IMG/VR virus record: IMGVR_UViG_3300009431_000002
Span: 32,001-96,000 of that record
DNA from: a virus
Taxonomy: Duplodnaviria > Caudoviricetes
Strand: one strand, 5' to 3'
Length of the DNA stretch: 64,000 bases
This document shows positions 12,675 through 50,351 of the stretch, in pieces. A model generated the notes under the pieces. It searched no databases, was not told the DNA's origin, and saw nothing but the letters and a program-made list of their open reading frames with translations. Position numbers and translations under genes: made by a program. Numbering within the stretch: position 1 is the first letter of the stretch; each line of letters begins with the position of its first letter.

Positions 12675-12703
12675 ATGGTACACACGCTGTACTTACCTGT
12701 CAA
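12675..12703 (-). promoter_or_regulatory. sigma70-like promoter TTGACA-17-TACCAT
   Basis: + strand TGTCAA at 12698-12703 and ATGGTA at 12675-12680. Confidence 0.75.
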
Positions 12704-13995
12704 GGCGGTCCTGCGAGCGAGTACCCCAACGCCTCCACGACGTCGGGATCGGCCGCGTCGCGCATCGCCTTGAGCAGCGGCTGGCTGTACCGACGCATGT
12801 ACTCCCCCTCGAGGTAGTACGCTCGCCGGGTGAAGGTCTTGTCTTCCAGCCCGTCGTCGCGGGAGAAGTGCTCCAACATCGGCGCAAGGCACCTGTCCGG
12901 CAGACGGACCACGCCGGGCACTGCTTCGCGCCCGAAGAGCGCCGCGACCCGCCGGAGCTCGACGCCCGGGTTGCGCAGGAGATCCTCGTAGCGCACGACC
13001 GCGGCGCGCTTGCCCTCGAAGAAGTCGAGCCAGGCACGGTGCAGCTTGTTCCAGCGCCCCATCCACTTCGTGACCGCTTCGGGCGTCACCGAGACCCGAC
13101 GCTTCGTGAGGCGTTCGGCCCATTCGGCGAAGCTGATGCACCAGGCGTAGGGGTTCTTCACGCTCAAGATGAAGCCGAGGTCGCCGCGGTCGTGGGCCGC
13201 CTTCACGTTGGTCTGCTCGTACTGCGAGGTGAACCCACGCGCGACGAGCGGCGACCAATCCCAATCGAGCTCCGCCGGCGCGTGGTGCTTCCCGCCGAGC
13301 GGGTTGGAGAGGACGCGGGCGTGGACGTACTCCTCGAGGAGCAGCTTGAGGAGGTTCGTGCCGGACCGCTCGATGCCGTACTGCTTGACGTAGAGCTTGC
13401 GTCCGCGGGGCTGGCTGCAGTTCGGGCCCGTGATGACCCGCCGGACGTCGGCGATCTCGGGACCAGTCGGCGGCTGCACCCGCCACCAATCTGTTCGCCA
13501 CCGACCGTTCGTGGTCTGCCCACCATCTGTTGCGAAGCGGCCGACGAGGTCCGCGCCGAAGTCGTAGTACCGCCGCTCAGCGTTGTCCAGCGCGATGACG
13601 CCGCCGCTGCGCACGGCGAGGAGTGCTGCCGCGAGGCAGCGGACGCGACGACGGCCATCCACGAGTGCGAAGTCAGCGCCCTGCAGGCCGACTGCGTCCA
13701 CGCCGGCCATCGGGTAGGCTGTCCGGTCGCCCCACACCGGCACGTGCTGCAGGCGGACCTGCTGGGGCAGCCTGGGGCGAAGGTCCTTGACGGCGGGAGC
13801 ATGGTGTTCGACCGACGACCACCCCTTCGTCCGGCGGGCGAACCACAGGGTCGACTCGCCGGAGCCCCACTCCAGGCCAACCCAGTTGCCCGTGTCCCAG
13901 GACTCGAAGAGGTCGATGAACTCGCGGGTCAGCCACGGCTCTCCGGGGCCACCGGTCAGCGCTTTGTACCTGTGCTTCGGGTTGATCCACGTCAT
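12700..13995 (-). CDS. class I SAM methyltransferase fused to a sulfotransferase
   Basis: LEWGSGESTLWF, SVEH, ALVDG.RR; YGIERSGTNLL (5'PSB), VKNPYAWCIS (3'PB), VVRYEDL. Confidence 0.8.
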   Translation of the reverse strand: MTWINPKHRYKALTGGPGEPWLTREFIDLFESWDTGNWVGLEWGSGESTLWFARRTKGWSSVEHHAPAVKDLRPRLPQQVRLQHVPVWGDRTAYPMAGVDAVGLQGADFALVDGRRRVRCLAAALLAVRSGGVIALDNAERRYYDFGADLVGRFATDGGQTTNGRWRTDWWRVQPPTGPEIADVRRVITGPNCSQPRGRKLYVKQYGIERSGTNLLKLLLEEYVHARVLSNPLGGKHHAPAELDWDWSPLVARGFTSQYEQTNVKAAHDRGDLGFILSVKNPYAWCISFAEWAERLTKRRVSVTPEAVTKWMGRWNKLHRAWLDFFEGKRAAVVRYEDLLRNPGVELRRVAALFGREAVPGVVRLPDRCLAPMLEHFSRDDGLEDKTFTRRAYYLEGEYMRRYSQPLLKAMRDAADPDVVEALGYSLAGPP

Positions 13996-14675: not shown

Positions 14676-15986
14676 CTACTTCTTCCCGAAGAACTCCTTC
14701 ACCACCTTCGGCCGCATGGCGACAGCGACCTTGCGGTTCGACAGGCACATCGAGCAGAAAGGTTGCTTCAGCCGGTCCTGCTGCAACAGGCGGTTGAGGA
14801 AGTGGGGCCGCAGGGTGTCGTGGAACTGCGGGAAGTTGTCGTAGTCGCGGCCGAGGTGCAGCGCCGTGTTCCGGCCGTTGGGGCAGATGTCGACCTTCCC
14901 CTCGCGCAGCGTGAACTTCGCGCAGTTGCAGTGCGCCGGCAACGACTTCGGCACCGGGACGACGGGGCCGTTCACCCGCTGCTCCCGTTCCGAGATGACG
15001 ATGTGCTTGGCCTCGCCGTACTTGCCGGCCTTCGGGAAGGCCTTGCGCACCGCGGCCACCTGGGCCTTGTTGCCGGAGTACTCCGAGATCCGAACGAGGT
15101 CGGCCATCTCCAGCACGGGCGCGTACTTCCTGGTGGTCTTCTCGGTGAAGGGCAGCACCGCGGTGAGGATGTCCACCTGGTCCGTCAGGCCGGACTCCTT
15201 GAGCCGCTTGACGCCGGCGGCGATGTACTTCCACATCAGAGGCTCGCCGCCGCAGAGCGTGATGACGCGGTAGTGGTAGCCCGACTGCTTGCTGTAGTCG
15301 ATGAAGCGGTCGACCTCGGCCAACGACATGTGGTGGTTGGGAGAGCCCTCCATCCACTCGCGGACGATGCAGGGCACGCACCCACCCGAGCAGGTCGTGG
15401 TGGCCATCAGCGTCATCTTCAGCACGGGTTTCCTGGCGAACCAGGTGCTCCCCGGGCCACGCTGGAGCTCCAGGCCCTGCAGGGCGCAGAACTCGTCCAC
15501 GGCGTGGATCACGCCTGGGAACCAGCCCGCGTAGTCGTGGCCCGCGAGCCACCCACCGGGCTTGACCTTGCCGTACCATGCCCGGAGGTCGGCCGAGACG
15601 TCCTTGTAGCCGTGGCCGGCGTCCACGAAGACCATGTCGAGGGTCCGGTCTCCGATCATCTCCGCCGCGTCCACCGACGGCATGTGCATCGGCCGCACGT
15701 CGCACTTGGCGTCGCCGCGCGTGATCTCCAGGAAGGTCGCCTTGGCGTCGCGGTGCTCCTGGACCGACTCGTCCCAGGAGTCCACGGCGTAGAGCACCGC
15801 GGGAGGAACGGCCTCGAGCATGTAGCTCGTGCTCAGCCCAGAATGGACCCCCACCTCGGCCATCGTCCGCACGCGCTTCTCCCGGACGAACTTGGCGTAC
15901 CACTCCCCCTCCTTGGGGAAGAACCACCCCATGACCTCGCGTCCGCGGAACTGCCTGCTGCCTCGACTCTTGAAGTTGATCGCCAC
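14676..15986 (-). CDS. Methyltransf_24-type O-methyltransferase fused to a radical SAM domain
   Basis: AEVGVHSG, AVDSW, VFVDAGH, KPGGWLAGHDY; CSGGCVPC (CX3CX2C), CGGEP, C-terminal Cys cluster. Confidence 0.85.
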   Translation of the reverse strand: MAINFKSRGSRQFRGREVMGWFFPKEGEWYAKFVREKRVRTMAEVGVHSGLSTSYMLEAVPPAVLYAVDSWDESVQEHRDAKATFLEITRGDAKCDVRPMHMPSVDAAEMIGDRTLDMVFVDAGHGYKDVSADLRAWYGKVKPGGWLAGHDYAGWFPGVIHAVDEFCALQGLELQRGPGSTWFARKPVLKMTLMATTTCSGGCVPCIVREWMEGSPNHHMSLAEVDRFIDYSKQSGYHYRVITLCGGEPLMWKYIAAGVKRLKESGLTDQVDILTAVLPFTEKTTRKYAPVLEMADLVRISEYSGNKAQVAAVRKAFPKAGKYGEAKHIVISEREQRVNGPVVPVPKSLPAHCNCAKFTLREGKVDICPNGRNTALHLGRDYDNFPQFHDTLRPHFLNRLLQQDRLKQPFCSMCLSNRKVAVAMRPKVVKEFFGKK

Positions 15987-15995
15987 GTCGTCCTC

Positions 15996-17825
15996 CTACC
16001 AGGCGTCCTTGCTGGAGACCCTGGGTCCAGTCACGCGATACTGGCACAGGAAGCCGTCGTGCGCACGAGCCTTCCGGTGCTTCTGCCTGTACCGCTTGTA
16101 GAAGTCGTAGTCGTGGCCCTTCTTCCAGACACCCTGTCCGGTGGACCACTCCTCGTCGTACATCGTCTCCAGCGCCCACGCAGTGCGGAACGCCACGCAG
16201 CCGCTGTGCGGGGCGAACCGGCGCCCCTCCTTGCCGTCCCATCGATGCTCCCCGACGCGCTCCCCGCCGTGGTCGATCAGCCGTGCGCTGCCCCAGAACA
16301 AGCCCAGCTGCGGGTCCTTCTCGAACGCCTCGACGGTGATCTTCAGCCGGTCGGGCAAGGAGATGTCGTCGTCGTCGTTGTTGGCGATGAGCGGGGCTCG
16401 CGCGTGCAACAGCACCTGGTTGCGCTTCCACGACAGGTTGCTGTTGGGGTAGTGGAACCACACGATCCGCGGGTCCCTGAAGGACTCCAGCACCTTCCGC
16501 ACCTTCGGGTCTGTGCTGTCGTCGATGATGATGAGCTCCCAGTCGCGCATCGACTGCGCCAGGATCCCCTCGATGGCCTGGAACAGGAACCGCGGCCGGT
16601 TGTGCGAGACCATCATCACCGTGACCTTCGGCGCGTTGGTCGCCGTCCGCAGGCCGTGCCGCCGTCGCCAGATATTGCCGAGGCGCATTAGGTCCTCCTT
16701 CTCCCAGTTCTGGTACATGTCCAAGCTCACCTCGGGGGCGTCGTCGGCGGCGAGCTCCTCGGCGAGCGCCCTTCGCCACTCGTCGAGGTCGTGCGGAGGC
16801 ACGAACACTCCGTGGTGCGGAAGGGCTTCGCGGATCCCAGGTAGGTCTGAGGCGATGACCCTCGCGCCCCCGATGGCCGCCTCCACAGCGGCCATGCCGT
16901 AGGTCTCGGTCTCCGAGGGCATGAGGTGAACCCGGCTGCGCGAGAAGAAGCGCCGCAGGTCCCGGGCCGGCCCCACCATCTGGACGTTCGGCAACACCTC
17001 CAGGCCCTCGACCTGGGTGCCGTAGCCGCCGCGGGCGATGAGGAAGTGCTGGTCGTTGAACTCCCGGGCCAGTTCCCGGACGATGTTGCCGCCCTTCGAC
17101 CCGGAGGGGTTGATCATGGTCACGCTGTCCCGCTTCGGCGCCAGTCCCCCGAGGATGCGCGACGTGTCGATGACTGGACGGACGATCACGCTGTCCTTCG
17201 GCTTCCCGCACTCCTCCCACAGCGAGTACGAGTTGAAGATCCATCCTGCGGGCTTGTACCCCTGTGAAAGCGGATGGTCGTAGCTCCACTTCACGTGGCA
17301 GTACAGGTAGACCGGCACGGTGCCGAGCTCGAGGAACGGATGCGCAGCCTCGAACTGCGCCACGACCACGTCCGGCCGCATCCGCGCGAGCAGGGGCTTG
17401 ACGTAGTGCCGTTCCCATCTTGGGAACCCGGAGTGCAGGAGCACCCCCTCCATCGACTCCACTCCGCCAGGGCCCTCGCCCTCGACTGCGACGACATCGA
17501 AGCCGTCCCGGACCAGGGCCTGGGCCAGCCCCATCATCGCGGTCTCGCCCCCGGCGTAGACGTAGGGGGGCAGCCTCGGGGACACGCACAGGACCAGTGG
17601 CTTGGTCTTGGGGGGCGCACCCGTCAGCAGGAGCATCGCGGCGCCCCGCCGTCCAGGCTTGACGTTCAGCGGGCGCCCTTCGATCTCGCCCATCCTCGTC
17701 ACGACGTTGCCTGCGAAGCGCGTGTAGCGCTCGGCGGGTACAGGGCTCGTCGGGGCCAGGACTGCGACGACGTCGCTGAACGTCTCGTAGATCCTATCCG
17801 AGATCAGGTGGATGTCGTCAGCCAC
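15996..17825 (-). CDS. GT4 plus GT2 fusion glycosyltransferase
   Basis: PSETETYGMAAVEA (EX7E), ASDLPGIRE; VSHNRP.FL.QAI, LIIIDDS, NNDDDD. Confidence 0.85.
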   Translation of the reverse strand: MADDIHLISDRIYETFSDVVAVLAPTSPVPAERYTRFAGNVVTRMGEIEGRPLNVKPGRRGAAMLLLTGAPPKTKPLVLCVSPRLPPYVYAGGETAMMGLAQALVRDGFDVVAVEGEGPGGVESMEGVLLHSGFPRWERHYVKPLLARMRPDVVVAQFEAAHPFLELGTVPVYLYCHVKWSYDHPLSQGYKPAGWIFNSYSLWEECGKPKDSVIVRPVIDTSRILGGLAPKRDSVTMINPSGSKGGNIVRELAREFNDQHFLIARGGYGTQVEGLEVLPNVQMVGPARDLRRFFSRSRVHLMPSETETYGMAAVEAAIGGARVIASDLPGIREALPHHGVFVPPHDLDEWRRALAEELAADDAPEVSLDMYQNWEKEDLMRLGNIWRRRHGLRTATNAPKVTVMMVSHNRPRFLFQAIEGILAQSMRDWELIIIDDSTDPKVRKVLESFRDPRIVWFHYPNSNLSWKRNQVLLHARAPLIANNDDDDISLPDRLKITVEAFEKDPQLGLFWGSARLIDHGGERVGEHRWDGKEGRRFAPHSGCVAFRTAWALETMYDEEWSTGQGVWKKGHDYDFYKRYRQKHRKARAHDGFLCQYRVTGPRVSSKDAW

Positions 17826-18558
17826 GGTCCAGCTCCAGCACCTTCCGGACGCCCCACGGCCGCGGGGCCACGCCGTCCCGTTTGATGGTCTCGAACATCT
17901 CGTTGTTGCGGTGGTGGTCCCCGGCCGCGGCCGCGGACGGATGGTCTTGGTGGATGATGAGCGGGTCGTCGATCCAGCTGATGTCGCCGACCTGGTCGGC
18001 CTTCCAGACGGCGTGGTCGTCTTCGGCGCCCCAGCCGACGAAGCGTTCGTCGACGCCGGAGATCGCAGCCCACAGGGCACGCTCCGCGCCCATCGACATA
18101 CCGTTGGCACACCGAGACCAGGGGTTGGGCTGCGACGACGCGAAGTAGGCGCCCCAGTCCGACGAGAGGTCCTCACCCTCGGCGGCCTCGCGGCCGCGCC
18201 GGTGCTCGCACATGAGCATCAGATTCGGCCGGAGCCGGGCCTCGTAGGTCTCGACGAAGTGGGGGGCTGCGACGGCGTCGACGTCCAGCACGACGACGTG
18301 GCGACTCCGGCTCACGCGGATGCCGCAGTTGATGCTCGCGGCCCGACTGAACCGCGGGTCCCGCCACTCCACACGGAGGAACGTGAAACCGAAGGACCTG
18401 GTGATGCCGCGGATGTTGTCGAGGTGGTCTGTCGCGCTGGACAGGTCCGAGACGACGACCTCCTCAGGAGGCACCGTCTGGCGCGCCAAGGCGTTGAGGC
18501 AGTTCCACAACCGGGCGCCGCCACGGTCGCGCTGCGGGATGACGACCGTGGTGCCCAT
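17818..18558 (-). CDS. GT2 / GT7C-like glycosyltransferase
   Basis: VVIPQRDR, VVSDLSS, FSRAASIN.G, LDVD, DERFVGWGAEDD. Confidence 0.88.
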   Translation of the reverse strand: MGTTVVIPQRDRGGARLWNCLNALARQTVPPEEVVVSDLSSATDHLDNIRGITRSFGFTFLRVEWRDPRFSRAASINCGIRVSRSRHVVVLDVDAVAAPHFVETYEARLRPNLMLMCEHRRGREAAEGEDLSSDWGAYFASSQPNPWSRCANGMSMGAERALWAAISGVDERFVGWGAEDDHAVWKADQVGDISWIDDPLIIHQDHPSAAAAGDHHRNNEMFETIKRDGVAPRPWGVRKVLELDRG

Positions 18559-19172: not shown

Positions 19173-19529
19173 TCACATCACCGCGAGGTCGACGTCGTCG
19201 CCGACCTTCATCGTGATGTCGTTCATGTGCAGCAGGCAGTGCTCGACGTCCTCCACCTTCTTCAGGGGGATGGCGTCCTTGAGGAAGCGGCGGAAGGTGA
19301 TCCGGTCGCCCGGCTCCACCGGCGGCGTCAGGGTCACGCCCTTGTCGGTGAGCTGGCCGGGGCCGACGCGGACCACGCGGCCGACGCCCTCCATGACGTG
19401 CTCGCGGCCGACGTCCTGGTTGGGCCGGTACAGCCCGCCGCGGGTCTTCTCGCCGCGCGGCTCCACGGAGACGAGCACGTAGGGGCCCATCGGGCGGATG
19501 ACGTCGGGGTGGATGTCAGAGCTGTCCAT
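19173..19529 (-). CDS. groES: co-chaperonin GroES (Cpn10)
   Basis: IRPMGPYVLV, EKTRGGLY.P, GRVVRVGPG, VEPGDRITF, LLHMNDI. Confidence 0.85.
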   Translation of the reverse strand: MDSSDIHPDVIRPMGPYVLVSVEPRGEKTRGGLYRPNQDVGREHVMEGVGRVVRVGPGQLTDKGVTLTPPVEPGDRITFRRFLKDAIPLKKVEDVEHCLLHMNDITMKVGDDVDLAVM

Positions 19530-31809: not shown

Positions 31810-32893
31810 CCTGCTGAACCTCGTCTACCACGAGCGCCTGGTCCGCCACGAGCCCGGCGTGGCGAACCTCCGGACCGACGCGGACCTCCGCGCCGCGATC
31901 CTCCTCACGCTGGTCGAGCAGATGCCGCAGCAGGAGCTGGACGAGGCCACGCACACGGCCTTCCTGGAGCGTCTGCAGGAGCTGGGCGCCGATGGCGACG
32001 GTGCGGTGGGGTTTATGAACAGGGTGATGTCCATCCCCGCCGCGGCCGCCATGTTCCTCGCGTTCAAGCACTGGGACGTCGGTTCGCCGGTCTACGTCGT
32101 CGGGCCGCGGCTCCAGTCGATGTTCACGCGGACGAAGCTCGACAGTGCCCGACAGGAGGACTTCCGCCTGCCGTACAGCACCGTCTACCTGGCGCTCCCG
32201 GAGTGCGAGCTCACCGTCTGGGGCGGCTCGGCACGCCACCGGCTCATCGGAGCCTTCGTCCACCGATCCAGCTTCCAGGTCCTCGCCGACGACGGCTCCT
32301 CATCCGAGGGGCTCTACATCATCCTCGCCGGCGAGGACCACAGCCCGCCAGGTGAGTTCGGCGACGACGCCCTGCGCACCATGCCCATCCGGCTCGACCT
32401 GCCCATCGAAGGGCAGATCGGCCGCAAGTCGTTCTACGACGCCTCCCACCCGGACGACGACGACCGGCAGCTGGACCGGGAGGCCATGAGCCTCGCTGTC
32501 CGCATCATCATCAACGCCCTGCTCTACATCACCACCGGACTACCGTCCGAGGAGACCGCGGAGAGCAAGAAGCGGCTGGCGAAGCGGCAGAAGCTGCTGC
32601 GGAGGACCGGGAAGAAGGCCAAGAAGGCCCACAGCATCGCGGGCAAGCTGAGCCCCGTGTCCGTGGTCTGGCTCGGCCGCTCTGTCGAGCAGACCGCGCA
32701 CCAAGGCGGCACCCACGAGTCGCCGCGCCAGCACTGGGTCACCGGCCACTGGCACACCTACCTGTACGGCCCCGGCCGCACGGAGCGCCGGCTCAAGTGG
32801 GTCCAGCCGTTCTTGCGCGGCGACCCGCAACGTGGTGAGGTCCAGACCCGGGTCCACCACATGGAGGAGACCGATGCCTCAGATGACTCGTGA
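31802..32893 (+). CDS. conserved phage protein with a C-terminal HW.xGHW motif
   Basis: SPRQHWVTGHWHTY..GPGR.ERRLKWVQPF.RG. Confidence 0.75.
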   Translation: MTDLLNLVYHERLVRHEPGVANLRTDADLRAAILLTLVEQMPQQELDEATHTAFLERLQELGADGDGAVGFMNRVMSIPAAAAMFLAFKHWDVGSPVYVVGPRLQSMFTRTKLDSARQEDFRLPYSTVYLALPECELTVWGGSARHRLIGAFVHRSSFQVLADDGSSSEGLYIILAGEDHSPPGEFGDDALRTMPIRLDLPIEGQIGRKSFYDASHPDDDDRQLDREAMSLAVRIIINALLYITTGLPSEETAESKKRLAKRQKLLRRTGKKAKKAHSIAGKLSPVSVVWLGRSVEQTAHQGGTHESPRQHWVTGHWHTYLYGPGRTERRLKWVQPFLRGDPQRGEVQTRVHHMEETDASDDS

Positions 32894-48025: not shown

Positions 48026-49021
48026 CTACACCTCCACTTCGGGGGTTTCTGGAACACCCACCGCTTCATCATCCCGCCGCACTGAGGGCATCGGCGCGTC
48101 ACCGGCGCGCCTTTCCGGCATCACCCCCGTGGGAGCGGGCGCTTCGTCCGTCGTTTCTTGCTTCGCACTGGCTCTCCTTGCGTTGCGGGCGGCCAACCTG
48201 TCGCTGAACGATGTCGGCAGCCTCGTCGGCGCCACCGCAGGGCCTGCGGGACGCCTCGGGGTCACTGTAGCAGGGTTCTGGACGTCCACGTCGGCCAAAC
48301 GAGCCCGTTCAGCCCTCTGTAGGCGTGCCCGACGGGCCCTGTCGGCCGTCGTGAGGCCGCGGAAGGCACTCCCACGGCCGTAGATGGCCCCCAAGGTGTC
48401 CACAGGGACGCCTTTGAAGCCTCGACCGAGCATCTCGGCGACCAGACGCTGGTCCTCACCACGTCCAGGGGTCCACCAGATGCCCGACTTGGCCCCCACG
48501 ACGCCTGCGCGGTGCATCAACTCGTCCGGGATGACCGTCCCGAGCTGCCAGGGGATGCCCGGACCGAACTTGGGCTCGGCCACGAGCCGCTCGTGGACCG
48601 AGTTCTCCCAGTCCGGGCCCTGGTTGCGCACGAACATGGTCCTGGACCAGCAGAAGTCGATGTCTGGGCGGGCGTCCATCACCTTCACCCGGTGCTCGAG
48701 GGCCCAGGGGGTCATCACGTCGTCGTCATCGAGGTAGGCGATGTACTTGCCCTTGGCGATCTTGACGCCCTCGTTGCGCTGCAGGCCCCCTGAGATGCCC
48801 AGGGCCACTGGGAGCCGCAGAACACGCAGCCTGGGGTCGTACTTGCGCAGGATCTCGAGGATGTCGGCCGTGTGGTCGGTCGTGGCGTCGTCGACGACAA
48901 TCACCTCGATGTCCTGCAGCGTCTGGCCGAGGCACGAGAGCACGGCGCCCGCCATGATGCGGTCGCGTGACTCGCCCGGCGGGCCTCCAGTGGGGATGAT
49001 GACGCTGGCTACGACGTTCAA
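48026..49021 (-). CDS. GT2 glycosyltransferase with a basic/disordered tail
   Basis: SVIIPT, QTLQDIEVIVVDDATTD, RNEGVKIAKGKYIAYLDDDD; TTG start after GGAG. Confidence 0.88.
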   Translation of the reverse strand: MNVVASVIIPTGGPPGESRDRIMAGAVLSCLGQTLQDIEVIVVDDATTDHTADILEILRKYDPRLRVLRLPVALGISGGLQRNEGVKIAKGKYIAYLDDDDVMTPWALEHRVKVMDARPDIDFCWSRTMFVRNQGPDWENSVHERLVAEPKFGPGIPWQLGTVIPDELMHRAGVVGAKSGIWWTPGRGEDQRLVAEMLGRGFKGVPVDTLGAIYGRGSAFRGLTTADRARRARLQRAERARLADVDVQNPATVTPRRPAGPAVAPTRLPTSFSDRLAARNARRASAKQETTDEAPAPTGVMPERRAGDAPMPSVRRDDEAVGVPETPEVEV

Positions 49022-49653
49022 CGAGCTCTCCTGGTGCGCGCCGGCTGCCGGCGGCCGCGCTGGGGTGGGCCAGCTTGGCCGGCCCGGCGGAAGACCAGGA
49101 GGTTGTCGCAGAAGTAGTGCACCACGCCCTTGGAGCGCCAGTCGCGGACCCACCGCTGCATCACGGTGGTCTGCAGCTGGAACCCTCGACGCTCGAAGTG
49201 CCCGATCCAGTGGTCCGCGGGCATGAGATTGACGTGGTGGTGGCCGGGCTGTCCAGGAGGGGCGGCCGAGAAGACCAGCCAGTCCTTGGCGTGCCGCGCG
49301 ATGGTGTGGCAGGCGATGTCCGCCGTGTGGGCGGGCAGGTGCTCCAAGACCTCCATGCAGATGACCACGTCGACCTGCAGCCGGAGGTCCAGAGCCCTGG
49401 TGAGGTCGTGGATGTGGACCGGAGTGCCGGGATCCGCGAAGTCGAGGGCATGCGACGAGCCGTCGACGCCTGCGGCATCGCACCTGCGCTTGCGCAAGGC
49501 GTTGATGACACCGCAGGGGCCGCAGCCGATGTCCAGGGCGACCTTCGGCTTGATGTGCCGGGCGATGGTGTCGGCGATGACCACGGAGGAGTGCCGCTCC
49601 GTGGCGGCCACGGCCTCCATCCACTCCTTCGTGTACAGGTCGTTGAGGCTCAT
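49018..49653 (-). CDS. class I SAM methyltransferase (glycan-associated type)
   Basis: ALDIGCG, GVDGS, DVVICMEVLEHLP, FSAAPPGQPGHHHVN. Confidence 0.85.
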   Translation of the reverse strand: MSLNDLYTKEWMEAVAATERHSSVVIADTIARHIKPKVALDIGCGPCGVINALRKRRCDAAGVDGSSHALDFADPGTPVHIHDLTRALDLRLQVDVVICMEVLEHLPAHTADIACHTIARHAKDWLVFSAAPPGQPGHHHVNLMPADHWIGHFERRGFQLQTTVMQRWVRDWRSKGVVHYFCDNLLVFRRAGQAGPPQRGRRQPARTRRAR

Positions 49654-50351
49654 GCCTTCCTCGTCGGTGCGGGTGGGCAGCGCAGCCGCGGCTTCACCGG
49701 CGCGGGCTGGATCGGTGGCGGCGACGGCGGCCCGTCCCACCAAGTCCTGGTGTAGTCGACCTCCGGCGTGTGGATCCAGACGTTGGGCACGGGCTGGTCC
49801 ACCTCGTGGTCGAAGTGGGCGTGGACTGCGTCCCTCACGTCCGGCCAGTGGTAGTCGTGGCCGGCGATCACACGCGTCTTGGGCGACCAGTCTCGGATGT
49901 CCTGGTCCACAGCGGCGTTGGAGTGGTCCCCGTCGATGAAGACCATGTCGGCGAGCACAGGCACGTGCTTCACGGCCTCGTGGGAGGTCATCTTCAACAT
50001 CACGACGGGCACCTCGAACGCCGCAGCCAGCTGCTGGAAGGTGCGGTAAGCCCACGCGTCCTCCCAGGGGTCGATGGCGTACACGCACTCCAGGCACGGG
50101 GCGTCGAGGACGTAGCTGAGGCTGAGACCGGCGTGGACGCCGATCTCGACGAGCGTGCGGACCTGGTGCTCCAGGATCGTCCGGCGGTACCACTCCCCTT
50201 GCTGGTCGTCGAACCAGCCGGAGGTCTGTACGCCTCGGACGGTCCGGCTCAGCGCAGGTCCCAGCGGAGCGAGGGCACGGCGTCCACCAGCTCCACGTCC
50301 TCGAAGTCCAGGCCGCAGCCCTCGTAGTCGATGGTCACGCCCGGGAACCAC
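49650..50351 (-). CDS. Methyltransf_24-type methyltransferase (start uncertain)
   Basis: LVEIGVHAG, AIDPW, DMVFIDGDHS, IAGHDY. Confidence 0.8.
   Translation of the reverse strand: MVPGRDHRLRGLRPGLRGRGAGGRRALAPLGPALSRTVRGVQTSGWFDDQQGEWYRRTILEHQVRTLVEIGVHAGLSLSYVLDAPCLECVYAIDPWEDAWAYRTFQQLAAAFEVPVVMLKMTSHEAVKHVPVLADMVFIDGDHSNAAVDQDIRDWSPKTRVIAGHDYHWPDVRDAVHAHFDHEVDQPVPNVWIHTPEVDYTRTWWDGPPSPPPIQPAPVKPRLRCPPAPTRKA

Follow-up and report, generated by a model that had tools for sequence, protein, structure and literature searches.

A fused methyltransferase-radical SAM gene

The window analysed in this work is a stretch of 64,000 nucleotides of phage DNA (Duplodnaviria; Caudoviricetes) corresponding to positions 32,001 to 96,000 of the IMG/VR record IMGVR_UViG_3300009431_000002. 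The source record, from an uncultured phage, is 201,921 bp long, complete by CheckV and has an overall GC content of about 67 %. The minus strand of the window carries, at 14676..15986 (stop codon included), a gene for a protein of 436 aa, P0001, in which a methyltransferase domain is followed directly by a radical S-adenosylmethionine (SAM) domain. The evidence described below favours, on balance, the view that P0001 is a genuine bifunctional glycan-tailoring enzyme encoded by a single open reading frame (ORF).

Translation of P0001 is expected to start from GTG at 15986, four bases past the sequence AGGAGGA (15991..15997, minus strand). This strong Shine-Dalgarno ribosome-binding site, read from the sequence, overlaps the TAG stop of an upstream glycosyltransferase gene of the GT4-GT2 type. 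The P0001 gene ends with TAG at 14676-14678. The first-pass annotation, prepared from the letters of the DNA alone, had proposed that the methyltransferase and radical SAM domains are joined in frame and had pointed to a stop or frameshift between them as the observation that would speak against this. A single frame of 436 codons was found to carry all the motifs it had named, EVGVHSG, VDAGH, GHDY, CSGGCVPC (C199/C203/C206) and GGEP (246-249), as well as the C-terminal cysteines C353, C355, C368, C411 and C414. There are zero internal stops in the deposited sequence, and the GC content at third codon positions (GC3) is at least 0.90 throughout, 0.90-1.00 in each 40-codon window including the one spanning the domain junction. 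Records of this exact protein exist on 5 JGI contigs, which are possibly not independent of one another.

Both domains were detected by Pfam. Methyltransf_24 matched residues 44-152 with 64.2 bits (cut-off 26.3), or 67.5 bits in a six-frame search. The Radical_SAM model (PF04055) matched residues 196-274 with 28.4 bits against a cut-off of 29.5 when the protein was used and with 29.9 bits in the six-frame search of the genome; relatives of this half score 33-56 bits with the same model. A match to Fer4_12 reached 23.2 bits against a cut-off of 22.

The methyltransferase half

Residues 1-188 (15423..15986, minus strand) correspond to a class I O-methyltransferase-like domain of the Methyltransf_24 family (PF13578), as indicated by Pfam, by an alignment of homologues (A3), by an AlphaFold2 model and by a match to the mannoside O-methyltransferase MeT1. 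Alignment A3 comprised this part of P0001 and 45 homologues, nearly all of them short and mostly stand-alone proteins (46 sequences in total). The residues G45 and G49 of motif I, D68, D121 and H124 of the DAxH motif and G148 and D150 of the GHD motif were invariant. The SAM-binding motif I (ExGxxxG) is represented by E43-V-G45-V-H-S-G49, with E43 kept in at least 90 % of the 46 sequences, and D68 is the acidic residue that follows strand 2 of the domain. H149 was also conserved in at least 90 % of A3, and, in a comparison made at the level of alignment, D121, H124, H149 and D150 occupy the positions where the COMT, CCoAOMT and TylF-type families place their metal ligands.

The AlphaFold2 model of the domain had a mean predicted local distance difference test (pLDDT) score of 95.2. 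The best solved relative in a profile search was MeT1 of Mycobacterium hassiacum (6g7d, E 6e-12), which also headed the fold ranking (6g7d/6g80, template modelling (TM) score 0.73-0.75 over about 200 columns). Next in this ranking came SafC, then SpnH and MycF, which are sugar O-methyltransferases, and cation-dependent O-methyltransferases of the CCoAOMT type. Alignment and model together show the N-terminal half as a complete Methyltransf_24 class I methyltransferase with the predicted fold of cation-dependent O-methyltransferases, in agreement with the class I methyltransferase of the first-pass annotation. MeT1 (PDB 6G7D/6G80), which acts in the synthesis of methylmannose polysaccharide, shares with it the Methyltransf_24-type class I fold and a sugar hydroxyl as the substrate, but is a single-domain enzyme of only about 20 % identity to the P0001 domain.

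In viral proteins Methyltransf_24 is very often fused to glycosyltransferases. Several relatives of the methyltransferase domain (P0007, P0012, P0032, P0034, P0038, P0128 and others) contain 2-3 tandem Methyltransf_24 domains, often within very long, mostly viral multi-domain proteins. The window itself contains a second glycan locus (48026-50351, minus strand) with a stand-alone Methyltransf_24 paralogue (49650-50351), 40 % identical to the methyltransferase domain of P0001, and a gene for a GT2 glycosyltransferase of 532 aa (48026-49624) directly downstream of it.

The radical SAM half

The second half of P0001 (residues 189-436) starts with an abridged radical SAM core (residues 189-335; 14982..15422, minus strand) which forms five beta strands in the model. 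It contains the motif CX3CX2C (C199, C203 and C206; 15369..15392, minus strand), recognised in the sequence and in the family alignment as the predicted site of the SAM-cleaving [4Fe-4S] cluster, and the glycine-rich SAM-binding motif GGEP (residues 246-249; 15240..15251, minus strand). In an alignment of 50 sequences of this radical SAM family (A1), CX3CX2C was present in all members covering the respective columns (47-48 of 50, the remainder being gaps), GGEP was likewise a feature of the family, and Y237, W252, N306 and P350 were conserved in at least 90 %.

The core is followed by a twitch domain (residues 336-425; 14712..14981, minus strand) with the pattern C353-X9-G363-X4-C368, a gap, C411-X2-C414 and N417. 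By definition, the CX9-15GX4C of a twitch motif encloses a beta hairpin, and a helix comes after it (PMC6231123); the first part of the SPASM signature alone, with no further cysteines, defines the twitch domain (PMC6231123; PMC9012708). C353, C368, C411, C414 and N417 were invariant in A1, and a fifth cysteine, C355, was kept in 45 of the 50 sequences; the four invariant cysteines and C355, at 90 %, are candidate ligands of an auxiliary cluster, as judged from the alignment. P0001 has no cysteines beyond C411-X2-C414 and was not matched by the Pfam SPASM model. The AlphaFold2 model of the radical SAM domain (pLDDT 93.7; predicted TM score 0.91) consists of five beta/alpha units; in it, C353 and C368 flank a beta hairpin (strands at domain residues 173-176 and 179-181), after which comes a helix (186-192). 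As far as alignment and model can tell, the C-terminal 248 residues are shown to be a complete minimal twitch radical SAM enzyme possessing all seven predicted cluster cysteines.

At one strongly conserved position only does P0001 depart from its family: codon 276 (window 15159-15161) encodes Ala, while 48 of 50 relatives in A1 have Asn in an [ST]-N-[AG] motif that follows a core beta strand. That the radical SAM half is degenerating or catalytically inactive, with the methyltransferase alone at work, is hardly credible in spite of this substitution and of the borderline Pfam Radical_SAM score, as the seven predicted cluster cysteines, GGEP, Y237, W252, N306, P350 and N417 are all retained, the model is confident and GC3 (0.95-1.00) gives no sign of decay.

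Nearest known structures of the radical SAM half

The model was compared with 48,161 PDB representatives using VIA-align, and the best matches were all radical SAM enzymes. SpeY was placed first (Z 18.8, 231 residues aligned, root-mean-square deviation (rmsd) 3.5) and BtrN second (Z 14.6, 191 aligned, rmsd 3.6), the remaining matches reaching at most 12.9 with a plateau at 12-13 formed by ChlB, BlsE, anSME, EpeE, MoaA and PqqE. Foldseek also ranked SpeY first (E 6e-11) and had BtrN among the best full-length matches. The family profile retrieved SpeY with an E-value of 1e-10 over its first ~126 positions only and BtrN with an E-value of 5e-4 over positions 6-230. A profile of the twitch part alone had no match among the PDB sequences, and no NCBIfam model came near its cut-off, NF033640 (N_Twi_rSAM) giving 16.8-18.2 bits against 170 with about 57 residues matched.

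Judged by these predicted structures, the two nearest solved enzymes are twitch dehydrogenases, which oxidise secondary alcohol groups of a sugar or a cyclitol, a relation of resemblance and not of membership. SpeY (PDB 7WZV/7WZX/7X0B), an enzyme of spectinomycin biosynthesis, likewise combines a small radical SAM core with a twitch domain of the single-cluster kind, and its substrate is sugar-like. It differs in being a non-viral, stand-alone protein of about 320 aa from an antibiotic pathway, 16-17 % identical to the P0001 domain, with neither a methyltransferase fusion nor a P0001-style association with glycosyltransferases. BtrN (PDB 4M7T/4M7S), the 2-deoxy-scyllo-inosamine dehydrogenase of butirosin biosynthesis (PMC9012708), resembles it in size (about 250 aa), in the abridged barrel and in the cysteines flanking a beta hairpin followed by a late CX2C; the four cysteines occur as in the fully ligated auxiliary cluster of BtrN, with the equivalence of the ligands resting on the pattern. 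The identity is 14-15 % and the substrate of BtrN is a free aminocyclitol. The C-terminal cysteines, described initially as twitch- or SPASM-like, could in this way be assigned to the twitch type on the grounds of CX9GX4C, CX2C and the closeness to SpeY and BtrN.

A dehydrogenation specifically is only a tentative choice for the radical reaction of P0001, on the model of these two enzymes. A bifunctional glycan enzyme with some other radical sugar chemistry, namely uronic acid decarboxylation (BlsE-like), deoxygenation or dehydration, formation of C-C or C-S bonds, or pure epimerisation via Cys355, is somewhat unlikely but has to be given its share of weight. BlsE (Z 12.7), EpeE (11.8), DesII (10.3) and AbmM (9.9) are significant structural neighbours too, C355 is retained in 45 of 50 relatives beyond the four cysteines needed for a cluster, and within the SPASM/twitch subfamily similarity is no reliable predictor of function (PMC6231123); the two dehydrogenases, however, clearly top the other matches and cover nearly the whole domain, and the four invariant cysteines fit a fully ligated auxiliary cluster of the BtrN type.

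Distribution and partners of the radical SAM family

In an exhaustive HMMER search of 1.84 billion representative proteins, residues 189-425 of P0001 matched a family of stand-alone proteins of about 240 aa with 25-38 % identity and E-values down to 7e-44. In the ESM Atlas the domain falls into clusters of unnamed, mostly viral radical SAM proteins of 225-267 aa (score 0.97), and by structure it matches (TM 0.82) a cluster of 89 % viral composition. When a single genome of each prokaryotic species was searched in a pattern-limited scan, four full-length members only were detected, all in metagenome-assembled genomes (MAGs). The family was found to be carried by about 48 phage, MAG and metagenome loci.

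At 9 of these ~48 loci the radical SAM domain is the C-terminal half of a larger protein (8 proteins of 415-470 aa and 1 cut by a contig end) whose N-terminal half is a particular small GT-A glycosyltransferase of about 210 aa with a weak Glyco_transf_7C signature. Such fusions are present in L008 (7329-8669), L009 (7341-8687), L054, L059, L062, L064, L069 and P0104. At two other loci, L010 (7321-8660) and L047 (3326-4684), the same small GT-A has a gene of its own just upstream of the one for the radical SAM protein, and judging from the gene arrangement the two look like a conserved two-part module. These fusions and pairs belong to the same family as P0001 (E 1e-41 to 1e-65 against the A1 profile), are similar in size, have the radical SAM half at the C-terminus and lie among glycan genes, but their N-terminal partner is the small GT-A and not a methyltransferase. 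Other fusions within the family involve GT2 (P0125) and hexapeptide acyltransferases (P0025, P0049). The neighbours of family genes on phage contigs encode GT2, GT4, LicD-like and rhamnosyltransferase-like proteins. The family is uncharacterised, mainly phage-borne and tied to glycan genes; its fusion partners and gene neighbours are consistently sugar-handling enzymes, which is in keeping with the sugar substrate suggested at the outset.

P0120, a protein of 2135 aa on a 67-kb JGI contig, begins with a radical SAM domain followed by three GT2 domains, one GT4 and one GT7C-type domain, and by its domain content would amount to a whole glycan assembly line in one polypeptide. In L007 (3293-8681) genes for the portal, an unknown protein, the major capsid protein (PF13252) and a small ORF are followed by a stand-alone twitch radical SAM gene, and this family gene sits inside the head-morphogenesis block. 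In L003 a portal gene is located ~3.5 kb downstream of the radical SAM gene. A further radical SAM gene, whose product has a complete SPASM domain, comes right after the twitch gene in one phage lineage (L003:8719-9594, L037:4716-5594 and L042:2812-3690), and in L006 (115-1029) the radical SAM gene is immediately preceded by a gene for an InPase-type inorganic pyrophosphatase (PF18823, E 1e-48).

Rarity of the architecture

The search for the same domain architecture proposed in the first-pass annotation covered the best 150 hits from the 1.84 billion representatives and the ~48 related loci. P0001 was the only protein matching with both halves among the best 150; since the scores of the two domains are additive, any homologous fusion would have headed this list. 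Methyltransf_24 does not occur in the same frame at any of the ~48 related loci, and only in L011 is a Methyltransf_24 gene present nearby. No second example having come up within this scope, the architecture must be considered uncommon.

Nucleotide and protein searches of the GenBank phage collection retrieved the methyltransferase half only, mostly from cyanophages. An insensitive word-indexed homologue search with P0001 returned the protein itself and one protein with the methyltransferase only, and the same kind of search with the family profile was swamped by MoaA. A close-relative scan of viral contigs with P0001 yielded no match. The ESM Atlas provided leads (scores <0.8) to class I methyltransferase-radical SAM fusions of other families, Methyltransf_21 with SPASM in viruses and Radical_SAM with Methyltransf_23 in Bacillota. 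A literature search for methyltransferase-radical SAM fusions brought up no relevant paper.

The use of SAM in two ways by one polypeptide, as the radical source and as the methyl donor, is familiar from RlmN/Cfr and MiaB/RimO. In these enzymes both uses take place within one radical SAM domain with a single active site and the substrates are RNA or protein, whereas P0001 appends a separate class I methyltransferase domain. The architecture of P0001 is real and apparently unique, and is built from two families typical of phage glycan genes.

The domain junction

The two halves meet at residues 184-192 (...FARKPVLKM...; 15411..15437, minus strand), without a linker and at the very point where the stand-alone methyltransferase homologues stop and the stand-alone radical SAM homologues start. 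The coding strand reads AGG AAA CCC GTG CTG AAG ATG ACG CTG ATG at this place, and the window's junction sequence in 15411-15437, with its CCC run, is AAACCCGTGCTGAAGATG. Stand-alone methyltransferase homologues finish at W-x-x-[RK]-[KR]-P, which is the exact end of the P0001 methyltransferase domain (TWFARKP). In the +1 frame, codons 189, 191 and 193 are TGA, M190 is an in-frame ATG, and removal of one base from the CCC run would create a TGA stop two bases ahead of the M190 ATG. By its sequence the junction looks like the scar of two coupled genes merged by a one-base change, and a probable origin of the fusion is a pair of coupled neighbouring genes, since the regular end of one domain coincides precisely with the regular start of the next.

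The same arrangement could result from an error of sequencing or assembly, the real state being a methyltransferase of 188 aa that ends at TGA and a coupled radical SAM protein of 247 aa starting from M190. The missing linker, the precise agreement of the junction with the ends of stand-alone homologues of both halves, the reading ...CCG TGC TGA, then AG, then ATG, obtained when the CCC run is one base shorter, the three TGA codons of the +1 frame between codons 189 and 193 and the failure to find a second Methyltransf_24-radical SAM fusion in the scope given above are all in keeping with such an artefact. It is nevertheless unlikely: the protein is identical on the 5 JGI contigs (with the reservation that they may not be independent), a run of three bases is not an error-prone homopolymer, GC3 remains high in the fused frame through the junction, and fusions are frequent both in the same operon (GT4-GT2 and an unknown domain with a sulfotransferase) and in the radical SAM family (GT-radical SAM). 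Scans of metagenome and viral contigs for the exact junction sequence, allowing CC, CCC or CCCC, found no copies in collections from which records of the phage's own genome may have been missing. Even if the gene were split, the two halves would be coupled neighbours with the same functional link.

The glycan operon and its surroundings

The P0001 gene is the third of five translationally coupled genes on the minus strand encoding, in order, GT2, GT4-GT2, methyltransferase-radical SAM, a sulfotransferase-like protein and a protein with an unknown domain joined to a sulfotransferase. The first gene (17818..18558, minus strand) encodes a GT2/GT-A glycosyltransferase of 246 aa according to Pfam. 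It is distantly related to the small GT-A partner described above (phmmer E 1e-8 to 1e-4 against L047, L009, L010, L008, L062, L064, L069 and L054) and stands here as a separate gene two positions upstream of the P0001 gene. The second (~15996..17825, minus strand) encodes a fused GT4-GT2 glycosyltransferase of ~609 aa, also by Pfam; its start is uncertain, as the open frame reaches 18176. The gene following P0001 (13992..14675, minus strand) encodes a sulfotransferase-like protein of 227 aa, with a Pfam Sulfotransfer_3 score of 26.2 bits that is just under the cut-off of 27, and its GTG start abuts the P0001 stop. The start of the last gene (12700..13995, minus strand) overlaps the previous stop in an ATGA sequence, and its product of 431 aa has a C-terminal sulfotransferase domain (Pfam Sulfotransfer_3, 33.5 bits). 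The two sulfotransferase-like domains are weak mutual paralogues (27 % over 117 aa). The N-terminal domain of the 431-aa protein (~200 aa, with a GxGxG-like motif) was matched neither by Pfam nor by the Methyltransf_24 profile, and its assignment as a Methyltransf_24 relative was rejected on account of the missing profile match. A GroES-like co-chaperonin gene (window 19173-19529, also minus strand; phrog_3188, E 3e-12) precedes the operon by ~600 bases.

In a six-frame search the P0001 gene was the only radical SAM gene of the phage genome. The genome also has no sugar dehydratase/epimerase of the short-chain dehydrogenase/reductase (SDR) type (PF01370), no DegT aminotransferase (PF01041) and no thymidylate-synthase-like gene. 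The lack of SDR and DegT genes makes host nucleotide sugars the probable starting point of the pathway, and the sugars are probably tailored after or around their transfer.

The substrate might alternatively be something other than a glycan, either a peptide or protein residue, in the manner of the SPASM/twitch enzymes modifying ribosomally synthesised peptides, or a base of DNA or a nucleotide. Many SPASM/twitch enzymes do act on peptides, ChlB, SuiB, SkfB and EpeE are among the structural neighbours (Z 11.6-12.9), and PHROG labels the methyltransferase family as DNA methyltransferase. This is very improbable, however, given that P0001 has no peptide-recognition (RRE) domain, sugar enzymes account for all fusion partners and most of the neighbours, the genome lacks a thymidylate-synthase-like hydroxymethylase as a source of the handle for DNA glycosylation, and the methyltransferase fold is closest to O-methyltransferases. 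A role in DNA glycosylation was set aside as unlikely for a genome with no thymidylate-synthase-like gene.

Proposed function of P0001

P0001 most likely tailors a sugar coat built by the phage, and the glycan probably decorates a virion protein or the envelope of the infected cell. In the proposed mechanism the radical SAM cluster would cleave SAM to give a 5'-deoxyadenosyl radical, which would abstract hydrogen at a carbinol carbon of one of the sugars that the operon's glycosyltransferases have attached. The auxiliary cluster, putatively ligated in full by Cys, would then accept the second electron, and the sugar would be left in its keto form as with BtrN and SpeY; another possibility is that Cys355, conserved but not needed for the cluster, returns a hydrogen to the opposite face and so produces an epimer. 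Finally, the methyltransferase domain would spend a second SAM molecule on O-methylation of a hydroxyl, either on this sugar or on one next to it. The first-pass annotation had envisaged one polypeptide using SAM in two ways, by oxidising or epimerising and then methylating a sugar. Its foundation has held, as both domains are real and look intact; the succession of the two reactions on the same sugar is retained as a proposal.

A number of observations weigh against the proposed function. The identity to SpeY and BtrN is just 14-17 %, a single-sequence search with P0001 finds no significant relative in the PDB, and similarity is a poor guide to the reaction type in the SPASM/twitch subfamily (PMC6231123). 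No member of the radical SAM family is biochemically characterised. Ala276, in place of Asn, could weaken SAM binding or catalysis, to judge from its conservation in relatives. About 15 flanking genes examined with PHROG and Pfam were orphans except for the GroES-like gene and gave no pointer to the target of the glycan. A single-base assembly error could mimic the fusion because there is no linker and the CCC run lies just before the TGA of the +1 frame.

A more far-reaching scheme may be considered, although it is a long shot. The ~240-aa, mostly viral twitch family would represent new glycan-tailoring radical enzymes with which, in combination with a dedicated small glycosyltransferase, phages make unusual virion sugars; in P0001 the fusion with zero linker would pass a reactive keto or enediol sugar to a metal-dependent methyltransferase, so that a methylated sugar beyond the reach of ordinary hydroxyl methylation is formed.

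Significance

The glycosylation of virions and host surfaces by phages is only beginning to be studied, and the known cases involve ordinary glycosyltransferases and methyltransferases. No radical SAM chemistry is known to have been characterised in phage glycosylation, and none appeared in the literature that could be searched. In P0001 sugar methylation is linked, within a single polypeptide, to a compact radical SAM family that is mainly viral and uncharacterised, and this provides a clear hypothesis on the function of the entire family. At 436 aa the protein is small and expressible, and its two SAM-derived products, 5'-deoxyadenosine and S-adenosylhomocysteine (SAH), can be assayed. If the chemistry does prove to be new, it would add a further type of reaction to glycan tailoring and would offer a small radical enzyme for sugar engineering.

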